From an uncultured Verrucomicrobiae bacterium (GTDB lineage: Bacteria > Chlamydiota > Chlamydiia > Chlamydiales > Rhabdochlamydiaceae), in assembly GCA_963818965.1 (NCBI GenBank), contig CAWFUG010000009.1:1-64000 (forward strand): DNA of 64,000 bases, in the 5' to 3' direction. Made by a program: the position numbers and the translations under genes. The notes under the pieces are model-generated. The model saw only the letters and a program-made list of their open reading frames with translations. It ran no database searches and was not told the DNA's origin. Shown piece after piece: positions 13,197 to 36,679 of the stretch. Position 1 is the first letter of the stretch. Every line of letters begins with the position of its first letter.

Positions 13197-16100
13197 ATGA
13201 GCATCAGGTGCCGAGCTCAGCATCCATTCATAACATTTTTCTGCTGTACGGTCGTCGCCTTTTCAATGGGTGGTGTAAAAGGACACGCCGATTCAGGGGA
13301 AGTGATTCTCATAAGTTGTGGGGAAAAGCCCAAGCAGGGGCCGCCTGGCGTCCCAGGTGATCCAGGTGTAGCAGGCCCTCCAGGTCCTGCAGGATCTCCT
13401 GGCGCAGCGGGGCCAGATACGGGAATGACCGGTCCGATAGGTCCACAGGGATCCCCCGGGCCCTCAGGTGCGACGGGGATGACTGGGACCTCTGCAGGGG
13501 ATATGGGTGCTACGGGTAGTACAGGGGCTGTTGGGTCGGTAGGTCCAATGGGTTCGACTGGAAGTGCTACAGGACTGACCGGAATAACAGGGCCAACAGC
13601 CGCGGTGGGAGCGACAGGGGGAACGGGAACGACGGGTAGCACGGGAGAGACGGGCTCGGCCGGTGCGACAGGGTTAACAGGCGGGGCAGGATCAACGGGT
13701 ATGACCGGGCCGACCGGATTCACTGGAATGACTGGATCTACGGGGCCGACGGGTGGGATGGGTGTGACAGGGACTACGGGTACGACTGGACCGACAGGTG
13801 GCACTGGAGCAACGGGTCTCACAGGATCGGATGGCCCATTGGGATCTACAGGTTTCACTGGCTTCACAGGTCCGACAGGGGGAACTGGCTCGACGGGGGT
13901 CACAGGTCCGACAGGATTCACCGGTCTACCGGCTCTGACGGTCCAATAGGTTTTACGGGCCAAGCAGGCTCAACGGGCTCTACAGGGTTCACAGGAACGA
14001 CCGGTCCAGTAGGACCGACAGGTCTGACGGGTGGAACGGGACCCACTGGCTCTGATGGTCCAATAGGTTCTACAGGCCAAACAGGTTCAACGGGCTTTAC
14101 GGGTCTCTCAGGCTCGACCGGTTCTACAGGAACAACGGGGCCCACGGGTTTCATGGGTTCAATGGGCTCTACAGGCTCAACAGGAATAACGGGTGCTACA
14201 GGTCCTACGGGTTCAGATGGTCCAATAGGACTGACCGGAATGACCGGTAACACTGGATCTACAGGAACGACCGGTCTACCTGGTCCTATAGGGCTGACTG
14301 GGGCGACAGGGTCGACAGGAATGACTGGCTCTACGGGCCCTACCGGCTCTGACGGGCCAATAGGTTCCACCGGCCCAACAGGCACGACAGGTTCTACGGG
14401 AATAACTGGGCGACAGGGTGTTACAGGTTCAGATGGTCCAATCGGACTGACCGGAATAACGGGTAACATTGGGTCTACAGGTTCAACGGGTGTGACAGGT
14501 CCAACGGGTTCCACGGGATCGACTGGTTCTACAGGACTGACTGGACCCACAGGAACAACGGGTAACACTGGATTGACAGGTTCCACAGGACCTACAGGTC
14601 TGACAGGATCGACCGGTCTAACGGGGCTAATAGGTCCAACAGGTTCAACGGGGGACACGGGCCCCACAGGCCTACAGGCCCTACAGGCCCGACCGGCTTA
14701 ACAGGGACAACGGGTGCAACGGGGTTCACGGGGCTTACAGGGGAGACCGGCGCTACGGGGTTGACTAGTTTTACGGGATCTACAGGCAGTACAGGATTTA
14801 CAGGTTCTACTGGATTTACGGGACCGACAGGTTCTACAGGAAGTACAGGTTCCATTGGCGCTACAGGGGCCACTGGGATGACCGGCGAGACAGGGAATAC
14901 TGGTCCCGCAGGATTGACAGGTGCAACGGGAGTGACAGGAACGACGGGCAACACAGGTGCAACGGGAATAACCGGCTCAACGGGGCTCACCGGATCTACC
15001 GGCCTGACAGGTAGTACGACAGGTCCTACGGGGTCTACTGGCATGACGGGAATGACGGGGTCTAACGGGCCCGACAGGACCGACAGGCTCAACGGGTAGC
15101 ACGGGCTCAACGGGGTCTACGGGTACAACAGGTTCTACGGGGATCACAGGGGCAACGGGTCCAACAGGTAGCACGGGCTCGACGGAACAACTGGCAGCAC
15201 TGGATCTACTGGTCCTACAGGATCTACTGGCCTAACTGGATACACAGGATCGACCGGAGGGGGCAGGGGCAACGGGTTTTACGGGAGCGACAGGGGCCAC
15301 CGGGTCCGACAGGCACTACAGGTCCAACGGGGCCGACTGGCACGACAGGAAATACAGGCCCTACTGGGCCAACCGGGAATACAGGACAGACTGGAACGAC
15401 AGGGACAACGGGTTTTACGGGAACTACTGGGAGCACAGGGCTCACAGGTTTGACTGGCTCAACGGGCGGGACAGGGAGCACAGGAACCACAGGTCTGACC
15501 GGCTCAACCGGTCCAACAGGTCTCACTGGTCCAACGGGCCCCACGGGGCTCCACAGGTCCTACAGGACTTACAGGTCCAACAGGACTAACGGGATCTGTG
15601 GGCTCTACAGGCGGTACAGGGAACACCGGAACAACAGGTAGTACAGGATCGACCGGCCAGACAGGCCCCACAGGTCAAACAGGCATCACGGGGTTGACAG
15701 GATCGACCGGCTCTACAGGCCCGATGGGCCTGACAGGGGCCACGGGCCCAACGGGGCTCACGGGAATCACAGGTGCGACTGGTCCCACGGGCTCGACTGG
15801 CTTTACGGGATCTACGGGCAGTACAGGATTTACAGGTCCAACTGGAGGATTTACAGGCTCAACTGGATCTACGGGAAGTACAGGTTCTACTGGCGTTACA
15901 GGTGTCACTGGGATCACCGGAGAGGGACATGGATTCCAGAGGATTCACAGGGGCAACGGGAGCGCAGGATCGATGGGCAACACAGGTGAAGTGGGATAAT
16001 CCGGTCAACGGCAGCGAATTGCATTGACCGGTTTGAGGAGACGACATGTTCACGGACGGGAATAACGGGGTCTACCCGCCCGACAGGCCCGACAGGCTCA

Positions 16101-34700: not shown

Positions 34701-36679
34701 CAGGATTGACAGGGGCAACGGGCAGCACAGGGAGAACCGGGACGACCGGTCCAACGGGGATGACCGGATCTACAGGAATGACCGGTGTGGGGGGACCGAC
34801 AGGACAGACAGGAACGACCGGACTGACAGGTTTTACAGGTCCCACAGGTCCGACCGGTGCCACCGGAGCAACAGGATCCACTGGATCTACAGGATCTACG
34901 GGTTTCACTGGGATGACAGGAGCAACGGGTCCGACAGGCTTCACGGGAACAACCGGCTCTACAGGCAGCACAGGAGCTACTGGTCCCACAGGACCGACTG
35001 GCCCGACTGGAAACACAGGCTCGACTGGAGCGACCGGGCCAGTAGGGAATACAGGGACGACAGGGCTCACCGGTTCTACCGGCCCTACAGGTCCAACGGG
35101 ACCGACCGGTGCGACAGGAAATACAGGTTCTACTGGGCCAACGGGAAATACAGGGCAGACTGGCCCGACAGGATTTACTGGCTTAACAGGATCGACAGGA
35201 TCTACTGGCTTAACAGGAGCTACTGGAACAACCGGCTCGACGGGAAACACAGGCAGCACGGGTTCGACTGGCTCAACCGGTCCAACTGGTTTTACGGGTC
35301 CAACGGGTCCCACAGGTTTCACAGGTCCCACCGGACCCACCGGACCCACGGGACTGACGGGAACGACTGGCTCTATGAGTAGTACAGGGAGTACAGGAAT
35401 GACTGGTAGCACAGGACCGACTGGCCTGACGGGACCAACAGGCCTTGCAGGCTCGACAGGTCTGACGGGTTTCACAGGCCTGACGGGATCTACTGGACTA
35501 ACGGGAACGACTGGTTCTACAGGAGCAACGGGTCCTACAGGTATGACGGGAGGGGTAACGGGCAGCACAGGATCTACGGGCTCCACGGGATTCACGGGGT
35601 TAACAGGTTCTACAGGCCCGACGGGGGCAACTGGATCTGCTGGCGGGGCAGGAAGCACAGGGCCTACAGGACCCACAGGTCTCACAGGACTGACAGGATC
35701 CACAGGACTGACGGGACCAACTGGATCGACTGGTGGGGCAGGGGGCACAGGAGCTACGGGTCCCACAGGACCCACGGGTCCGACGGGTTCTACAGGTAGC
35801 ACAGGTGCAACTGGTAACACGGGTCCGACGGGCACTACAGGATCTACAGGTGCAACGGGAGTAACCGGTCTGACGGGTTTTACCGGAACAACCGGTGCCA
35901 CGGGACCTACTGGTCCCACAGGACCGACTGGCCCGACGGGGGCTACGGGACCGACTGGTTTGACAGGATCGACAGGCAGGACAGGGAGTACAACTGGGGC
36001 CACCGGTTTTACAGGATCTACGGGAGGGACAGGTGCTACGGGCTTGACCGGTGGAACAGGACCTACTGGTCCTATCGGGCAGACAGGAACCACCGGCTCG
36101 ACAGGTCCCACTGGTTTCACAGGCTCTACCGGTTCGACGGGGTCGACAGGGACGACGGGACCGACGGTTGGGCTCACTGGCTCTACTGGTTCGACGGGGT
36201 CCACAGGTAGCACGGGGCCCACAGGTAGCACGGGTGGAGCGGGGGGACCGAATGCTACGGAAGACACCGGTTACTTTTATGTAATAACAGCTAGGGCTGG
36301 TACCTTTCCTGTGGCTGCTGGTGCAGCTATTTCATTTACTCAAGGTGAAGTGTCCGGAGGAATTACCTTTTCCGGTGGTAATCTAATCCACATTGCAAAC
36401 GCTGGAACTTATCTCGTTTGTTTCGGGTACTCTTTCGTAAGCGGTAATCCTCCAGCCCTCTTTACCCTTATTGTCAACGGCACCACCCCTCCATCGGGTT
36501 CCAGTCTCGCTTTAGGACAGGCGCCGTCGCTTCCTACTTTGGCAAATACGACGGTGATCATTACTGTGCCGGCAGCATCTACGCTCCAAGTGACCAGCAC
36601 AAGTGGTAATGTTACAACGCTAGGTTCCGGATCTTCTTCTGGGGGAACTTGTGCTTTTTTGAGCATCATTGCGCTCTAG
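28782..36679 (+). CDS. Giant collagen-like protein, operon 1 chain C1 (N-type C, head Z); in-frame MITE in N-terminus, frameshifts ~29040 and ~29150
   Basis: ATG abuts B1 stop; the frame from 29041 reads [17 protein letters not shown], matching C2/C3; G-X-T 29080-36250; head EDTGYFY...GEVSGGITF...FLSIIAL. Confidence 0.85.
28807..28973. mobile_element. TATACC-family palindromic element, 167 bp, in frame within chain C1 gene
   Basis: TATACCACAGCCGGCTTGAAACTTCGAATTTGGCC ... GGCCAAATTCGAAGTTTCAAGCCGGCTGTGGTATA with long internal hairpin. Confidence 0.88.
29897..35330 (+). repeat. 1029-nt (343 aa) super-repeat in chain C1, five periods
   Basis: CCAGTAGGGAATAC at 29897, 30923, 31952, 32981, 34010 and 35039 (first interval 1026); CTCAAGTGGT at 30463 + n x 1029. 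Confidence 0.95.

Follow-up and report, generated by a model that had tools for sequence, protein, structure and literature searches.

Length-matched triplets of collagen-like genes, one of them built on a 114-triplet period, in an uncultured member of the Rhabdochlamydiaceae

The subject of this report is a set of nine collagen-like genes in the first 64 kb (hereafter the window) of the 506-kb contig CAWFUG010000009.1, which belongs to the assembly GCA_963818965.1 (2.24 Mb, 12 contigs, 88% complete) of an uncultured member of the Rhabdochlamydiaceae. Known counterparts include the BclA-like proteins of Bacillus and Clostridioides spores, in which, as in the window proteins, a Gly-X-Thr collagen region is followed by a trimerising head of the TNF/C1q type. 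BclA filaments are described as homotrimers with a strain-specific number of triplets (PMC10470788), and the title of Sylvestre et al. 2003, as it stands in the reference list of that paper, ties the number of BclA triplets to filament length. Bacterial collagens are treated as homotrimers in PMC8968730; a passing remark in PMC7743900 allows that collagen-like proteins of this sort could form heterotrimers, and PMC11923368 mentions polypeptides of bacterial collagen as long as 6000 residues. A further likeness to BclA is the presence of a glycosyltransferase gene next to the window genes. In contrast to BclA, the window proteins have signal-peptide-like N-termini with a conserved Cys and no exosporium-targeting N-domain, their helices comprise 180 or ~795 triplets, with a 114-triplet super-repeat in the giant genes, and their genes come in threes. 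The hosts differ as well, as the window genome contains no match to Spo0A or small acid-soluble spore proteins (SASP) and carries three to four nucleotide translocases.

In gene arrangement, the window resembles Pasteuria ramosa, in which PCL genes are reported to lie side by side in the same orientation in sets of three, each of three sequence groups contributing one collagen-like gene, with duplicated triplets (PMC13233619; bioRxiv 10.1101/2025.03.22.644704). The window triplets likewise consist of one chain of each of three groups, are adjacent and co-oriented, and occur in more than one copy. The likeness to the PCL triplets noted here is one of gene arrangement. Unlike the window organism, Pasteuria is an endospore former, and, unlike in Pasteuria-type triplets, the order of the chain types is not fixed in the window. 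The available portions of the PCL accounts describe neither length matching nor a shared super-period and, as far as the retrieved texts extended, a literature search found no account of chains matched in length within a triplet or sharing a higher-order period. Finally, heterotrimeric animal collagens and C1q also combine three different chains of equal length with a C-terminal trimerising domain at which assembly nucleates, the domain of C1q being of the same fold class as the window heads. The window differs from these systems in that interruptions are mostly unaligned between the chains.

Chain types and helix length

The nine collagen-like genes lie between 13.2 and 57.8 kb, all nine on the + strand, and form three co-oriented triplets. 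They are the only collagen-like genes of the assembly, in which 18 collagen-rich open frames were counted, every one within this stretch. Their G+C content is ~0.58-0.61, compared with ~0.47-0.52 in the flanks. Linkage is tight, the ATG of gene B overlapping the stop codon of gene A and the short genes being spaced by -17 to +61 nucleotides (nt). The genes are as follows:

Giant gene A: 13197..20981, + strand; alpha-type N-module; signal-peptide-like start, Cys codon at 13317, collagen domain, BclA-like head from 20531; 12 frame changes
Giant gene B: 20981..28781, + strand; beta-type N-module; Cys codon at 21122, head from 28338; 2 frame changes
Giant gene C: 28990..36679 (start approximate), + strand; gamma-type N-module; Cys codon at 29059, head from 36263; 1 frame change
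Short triplet 1: 43902..50623, + strand; S1 (43902-46094), S2 (46156-48423) and S3 (48407-50623), all intact, with 180, 179 and 180 triplets
Short triplet 2: 51157..57755, + strand; S4 (51157-53367), S5 (53384-55615) and S6 (55620-57755), all intact, with 179, 180 and 179 triplets

The encoded proteins share a common plan, in which a signal-peptide-like N-terminus leads to a conserved Cys and, after it, about eight Pro-rich triplets; then come an extended Gly-X-Thr helix and a trimerising head of the BclA/C1q type. The Pfam family Collagen (PF01391) was found in all four genes tested (E-value 1.8e-297 for C; 1e-66 to 1e-75 for S1-S3). The giant genes contain 8-12 non-Gly triplets within 793-797 steps, and the Y position is Thr in 88-93% of the triplets. 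The head of S2 matches BclA_C (PF18573; 44.5 bits, cut-off 38), and a Pfam head match was absent for C, S1, and S3 at E<=0.01. A structural model of the C head (predicted local distance difference test, pLDDT, 83) gave as best matches the C-terminal domain of BclA (1WCK; template-modelling, TM, scores 0.79/0.86) and F-BclA (9H38; 27% identity), followed by members of the C1q and TNF families.

Based on the 37 residues around the Cys, the N-modules fall into three classes, namely alpha (A, S1, and S4; 50-73% identity), beta (B, S3, and S5; 51-68%), and gamma (C, S2, and S6; 56-62%). The giant chains are 73% (A to S1), 68% (B to S3), and 56-58% (C to S2 and S6) identical to their short counterparts. 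Each of the three triplets contains one alpha, one beta, and one gamma chain, in the orders alpha-beta-gamma, alpha-gamma-beta, and alpha-beta-gamma. A head class composed of B, S1, and S5 (43-53%; the B head is 53% identical to those of both S1 and S5) also occurs once per triplet; its presence on the alpha chain in short triplet 1, hence on a different N-type, indicates that modules were shuffled.

The helix lengths are matched within each triplet. Between the Cys codon and the first head motif lie 7214 nt in A, 7216 nt in B, and 7204 nt in C, and 553, 548, 551, 553, 551, and 550 amino acids (aa) in S1 to S6. Counted as triplet steps, with insertions left out, A has 793, B 797, and C 795 triplets (~7.0 periods of 114), and the 179 or 180 triplets of the short genes listed above are kept despite 1 to 7 one-residue insertions per gene. 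Past its first 60-180 nt, the collagen DNA of the short genes is at background similarity (~0.5-0.7 per 60-nt window). Three distinct chains of equal helix length, the pattern looked for in a heterotrimer, were found in the giant triplet and in both short triplets. The selection for register suggested in an earlier, sequence-only reading of the window is supported, as selection for register or length, by the matched Cys-to-head distances and by the 179-180 triplets in six of six short genes.

Co-assembly of the chains would explain why helix length is equal within the triplets. The preferred reading, for which the probabilities are evenly poised, is that the chains of a triplet co-assemble, probably into a heterotrimer, and are under selection for equal length. 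The three chains would then form one fibre type, most likely an alpha-beta-gamma heterotrimer. With a rise per residue of ~0.286 nm, the fibre of the giant triplet (~795 triplets) would be ~0.69 um long and that of a short triplet ~0.155 um.

Repeat period and kinship of the units

Repeat finding over the whole region was dominated by a 9-nt periodicity. Lag identity was highest at a shift of 1032 nt for A (0.426, with 0.348 as runner-up) and of 1029 nt for both B (0.83; next 0.555) and C (0.686; next 0.486), in agreement with the periods read from the sequence before. Written in rows of 343 residues, B and C hold register over five to six rows. Parsing of the units returned the make-up proposed earlier, that is, 114 triplets plus two (A) or one (B and C) extra residues. 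The A unit consists of 114 Gly-X-Thr triplets with GGFT and GSTT one-residue insertions (344 aa), the B unit of 114 triplets, including one Gly-to-Ala 'AMT' triplet (TTAMTG), with one GSTT insertion (343 aa), and the C unit of 114 triplets with one GSTT insertion (343 aa). The motifs listed as chain-specific (TTAMTG/GLSG, GSSG, and GGFTG) are present. The following units were located by BLAST and nhmmer, A1-A5 being set in the phase of the C reference unit:

A array: 14468..19568, + strand; five units of ~1032 nt (A1-A5), from nhmmer/BLAST; 83-96% identity within the gene
A6: 19569..20520, + strand; diverged sixth copy abutting the head; 74-79% identical to A1-A5 and 72-75% to the C units; nhmmer score 663
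B array: 22440..27584, + strand; five units of exactly 1029 nt, frame open throughout; 91-98% identity
C array: 30087..35224, + strand; five units of 1029 nt (C1-C5); 82-98% identity
C0: 29114-30086, + strand; diverged copy; 74-76% identity
Cpost: 35225-36250, + strand; degenerate unit-length segment; 68-72% identity, barely above the gapped background of 65-67%

A clean 1032-nt period occurs in A only at 16754-19850, the unit lengths there and upstream being 1032, 1011, 1032, 1032, and 1033 nt. In B, in-phase remnants are found at 22115-22438 and 27586-27837, and the diverged copy Bpost has 76-80% identity over 0.7 unit. In each array, identity is graded from the centre to the edges. Hence, the five periods per gene counted previously stand for the well-kept units and, given the diverged edge copies besides them, are approximate. 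The repeat structure fills the whole helix, each giant collagen domain being ~7.0 periods long. The A, B, and C units were found nowhere else in the assembly. The B units also pair up (B1/B2, 98.3%; B3/B4, 97.3%), B5 being nearest to B1, and two alternative sub-blocks recur at the same positions of the B units, which points to block-wise exchange or recent duplication inside the array.

Total helix length is matched more strongly than copy number. Upstream of the head, the five homogeneous units extend from 6063 to 963 nt in A, from 5898 to 754 nt in B, and from 6176 to 1039 nt in C, a shift of less than 0.3 unit. Furthermore, the offsets in the alignment of A with C cancel, A being ~85 nt longer on the N side and C ~24 + 51 nt longer further on, with a net difference of 10 nt. 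That the copy numbers are artefacts of assembling a 5-kb tandem array is very improbable. Units as alike as C3/C4 and B1/B2 (up to 98.4%) are hard to assemble, and among the metagenome pieces examined none spans an array, many apparent joints in them being repeat noise. Yet three independently assembled arrays agree in total length within 12 nt and each shows the graded identity described above; a wrong copy number in any one of them would throw the lengths off by ~1029 nt, and this speaks against mis-assembly.

The units of A and C are related along their whole length. In a single register, they are 73-77% identical at the nucleotide level, compared with 63-67% for unrelated collagen DNA, in-phase BLAST matches score 470-680 bits against a background of 160-290 bits, and 50 of 114 X residues are identical in register versus 18.7 +/- 4.6 at other shifts. 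The segment that A and C had been noted to share is thus real and extends over the whole unit, indicating that their period was inherited rather than reached by convergence; by this sequence comparison, the A and C arrays stem from one array. The one-residue insertions of A and C occupy three different sites of the shared unit and therefore arose after the split of the two. A tree built from 14 A and C units grouped A1-A5 in one clade and C0-C5 in another, with a support of 94/93 each, and placed the edge copies outside both. The longest exact match between A and C is 25 nt, within the 19-27 nt seen in unrelated collagen gene pairs. The absence of a long identical tract gives no support to recent inter-gene conversion, and, given this background-level match and the clustering of the units by gene, the concerted recombination between genes proposed earlier is not supported as an ongoing process.

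No homology of the B unit to A or C was detected by rotation scan, X-string correlation, GSTTG-anchored comparison, or nhmmer, all of which gave background or mutually inconsistent phases; the best B X-string matches reached 28-31 of 113-114, at shifts that disagree with each other. Among the three giant genes, N-modules and heads are only 24-43% identical and group with those of the short genes instead. As they are far more diverged than the A and C arrays, the latter are younger than the chain types that carry them. The earlier argument that independent slippage would hardly yield one period in three genes is right, and the regularity of the three genes is not due to chance; however, two of the three arrays, those of A and C, are homologous and hence not independent.

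This kinship raises the question of descent without selection, whereby one expanded domain was copied into three genes, or a gene was triplicated, the lengths still being equal and the gene-specific units resulting from intragenic homogenisation. The homology of A and C over the whole unit, the clustering of the units by gene with well-supported clades, and the roughly collinear position of the five homogeneous units in the three chains would all follow from such a history. However, the alignment of A with C needs the compensating offsets given above, C0 is a unit copy and the collinear A segment opposite it is not (66-67%), and B has no in-register homology. In addition, the giant genes are far more diverged from one another in their N-modules and heads, which group with the short genes, and the six short genes still have 179-180 triplets in spite of saturated collagen sequence. 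Descent alone is therefore considered distinctly unlikely. In the preferred reading, the tandem arrays are old, their middle five units being kept alike by intragenic exchange while the edge copies drift. The equal period of B would then reflect either an older shared descent that has now been erased or a duplication that was retained for its match with the partner chains.

Integrity of the giant genes and register of the interruptions

Frame tracking by GGN periodicity revealed that all three giant genes are broken as assembled, which had escaped notice when A was taken for one open gene. A contains 11 frame changes in its collagen part, between 13923 and 17806, and one in its head, near 20690; B contains two, near 21179 and 22144; and C contains one, near 29143. 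In C, no in-frame ATG, GTG, or TTG is present in the segment corresponding by alignment to the S2 and S6 signal peptides, and the longest intact open reading frame (ORF) of C begins at 29213. No frame change was found in the six short genes (13.9 kb) or in five long housekeeping genes (1042, 970, 861, 678, and 1258 aa), the latter indicating that indels do not riddle the assembly as a whole. As a proxy for frameshifts, overlapping open frames were counted genome-wide, and the count was dropped as too unspecific. Further on in the window, an MptE-like gene (61438-62923) is split across two overlapping frames, with Pfam positions 1-67 in one ORF and 68-170 in the next.

The giant triplet might accordingly be a decaying, non-functional locus in this strain, with real frame changes and with matched lengths as a relic. 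The frame changes, 12 in A, 2 in B, and at least 1 in C, with none in the short and housekeeping genes, are in line with this, as are the lack of a clear start codon in C and a scrambled patch in A (15920-16080), which shows 5-10-nt deletions and holds 7 of the 12 non-Gly triplets of this gene. Outside this patch, however, only 5 non-Gly triplets remain among the 793 of A, no more than the 8 each of B and C, and most A breaks consist of a single nucleotide gained or lost in a short run of G or C. Also, the 1-nt insertions at 17517 and 17801 are both missing from a peat metagenome contig (1062 nt, 93% identical), which may, however, derive from another unit. The indels of A thus far outnumber Gly-breaking substitutions; with no comparable damage by substitution, they are more suggestive of consensus error than of prolonged neutral decay. 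Decay of the locus is regarded as unlikely, and the breaks in the giant genes may stem from sequencing error or from recent inactivation.

The interruptions were indexed in triplets from the head. Within the arrays, they occur at phases 19 (B, +1), 41 (A, +1; B, Gly-to-Ala), 63 (A, +1), and 98 (C, +1). In three successive periods, the index is the same (383, 269, and 155) for the A insertion GSTTG and the B triplet with Gly-to-Ala, so that the mapping of interruptions relative to the heads, as suggested by the sequence-only reading, yielded one alignment between chains among interruptions that are mostly chain-specific. Counted from the N end, the 8th-9th triplet is the site of an interruption in all chain types, at the junction of the Pro-rich start and the Gly-X-Thr helix.

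Structure prediction of the S1, S2, and S3 heads together gave weak support, with a score of 0.60, the best of 3 controls reaching 0.09, without separating hetero- from homotrimer; the runs agreed in at least 95% of the contacts, with a partner pLDDT of at least 82. In the calibration, 51 of 78 solved complexes passed the mark, as did 2 of 108 mismatched pairs, and scores of 0.60 or below comprised only 5 of the 78 solved complexes and all 4 mismatches that passed. Since solved structures exist for the trimers of BclA and C1q, the mark may have been passed owing to resemblance to these.

Several observations weigh against heteromeric co-assembly. Firstly, the single coincidence between A and B has a chance probability of ~8/114 and depends on the anchor, under which the homologous head-proximal interruptions of A and C lie 3 triplets apart. 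Secondly, most array interruptions are chain-specific, phases 19, 63, and 98 each occurring in one chain, and lone-chain interruptions are easier to reconcile with homotrimers or local bulges. Thirdly, helix length is equal across triplets, as in the six short genes, and across genera, with 144 triplets in both genes of a pair in a relative of another genus (G014) and in a single gene of a further relative (G011); hence, length conservation alone needs no heterotrimer. Fourthly, a collagen gene triplet of a relative of the same genus (G001) is not fully matched, with 297, 293, and 261 aa of collagen, in a 220-contig assembly. Fifthly, with all three giant genes frame-broken as assembled, the giant triplet may not be expressed in this strain. 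Lastly, the BclA filaments introduced above are homotrimers.

A rival reading is that of three separate homotrimeric fibres of equal length, with selection acting on fibre height, for instance to hold the heads at one level in a surface layer; the period of A and C would then be due to descent and that of B to the fact that only a matching increment was tolerated. Chain-specific interruption positions and a length conserved where no pairing is needed agree with such fibres, and the closest solved relatives are homotrimeric (PMC10470788; PMC8968730). Nevertheless, homotrimers offer no reason for the presence of one alpha, one beta, and one gamma N-module in three of three triplets, and they leave unexplained the jump from ~180 to ~795 triplets in all three genes of one operon and in none elsewhere. 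Separate fibres are therefore held to be rather unlikely. Returning to co-assembly, its fuller form, namely a natural bacterial heterotrimeric collagen with super-repeats expanded and homogenised in lockstep and with nine genes as a combinatorial set for long and short fibres, is put forward tentatively, as somewhat doubtful. In this form, the chains would zip up from the C1q-like head, and a length change in one chain would be selected against unless the other two matched it.

Genome setting, relatives, and meaning

Two features adjoin the giant genes:

GT92-family glycosyltransferase gene: 36879..38048, + strand; directly 3' of gene C; Pfam PF01697, E-value 5.6e-31
Nested perfect palindrome: 28807..28973, no strand assigned; spacer between B and C; outer arms of 35 nt, inner arms of 36 nt; RNA fold energy -149 kcal/mol

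The glycosyltransferase is 51% identical (E-value 2e-93) to the product of the gene 3' of the G014 collagen gene pair. This adjacent pair (G014:C3, 7099-11058 and 11129-16135) is followed by the GT92 homologue and adjoined by a gene for a 1668-aa autotransporter-like protein. The adjacent GT92 enzyme may glycosylate the Thr residues of the helices, and the fibres may serve in adhesion at the cell surface. The palindrome between B and C belongs to a genome-wide repeat family, with copies at at least 9 other contig sites (74-97% identity); the family has many copies, on most contigs, and partial copies at 12031-12071 and 37003-37061 flank the giant triplet. A tRNA-Leu (GAG) gene (12973-13057) lies directly 5' of gene A and is the only part of the examined stretch present at high depth in soil and peat metagenome contigs, being presumably shared by many organisms. 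Between the giant and the short triplets, two adjacent paralogues on the - strand (40141-41721 and 41927-43501) are 86% identical, with signal-peptide-like starts, and gave no match to a Pfam family.

In the 88%-complete genome, no match to Spo0A (Spo0A_C) or SASP was found, and three full-length genes and one partial gene for TLC-type nucleotide translocases were retrieved (contigs C11, C1, and C8). Such translocases are a mark of an energy-parasitic intracellular lifestyle. Together, this suggests an obligate intracellular, non-sporulating lifestyle. The Chlam_OMP6 profile had no match in this genome, but neither did it have any in the control genomes, which makes the negative uninformative.

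Collagen repeats were present in 18 of the 30 genomes of relatives searched, and the B head had no match in any of these 30. In the same-genus genome G001, the B and C units found only background identity (62-68%); the different, small collagen triplet of this genome (G001:C214, 116-4558), the first chain of which is without an N-terminal Cys, has heads that are unrelated to those of the window at E<=1e-3. A profile search of 1.84 billion representative proteins gave 400 matches at E<=1e-3, 13 of them at E<=1e-10; of the top three, the two that were looked up (P0001 and P0002) are on the window's own contig. In a set of 5.8 billion proteins, no match to the C head was found at near or shorter lengths. 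A head profile run on collections of genome and metagenome contigs gave 65 and 107 pattern matches, respectively, none of which was confirmed, and degenerate unit motifs had no match in either the metagenome or the genome contigs. Within these searches, no related array came to light. Among sequencing runs, two matches were listed, a peat and a soil metagenome, sharing 0.05-0.06 of the words, as contigs; no matching run of RNA sequencing was listed.

Gene triplets of this kind are known only as an unexplained arrangement in Pasteuria. The window adds a measurable constraint, in that helix lengths within a triplet agree to better than 0.5%, both over a 4.4-fold range between triplets and over saturated sequences, and this constraint makes the co-assembly of the chains directly testable. 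In addition, the giant triplet provides a natural case of a higher-order repeat kept in step across paralogues. If functional, its genes would specify a triple helix of unusual length for a bacterium and, if the heterotrimer reading is true, a bacterium of the obligate intracellular type would carry both long and short fibres.

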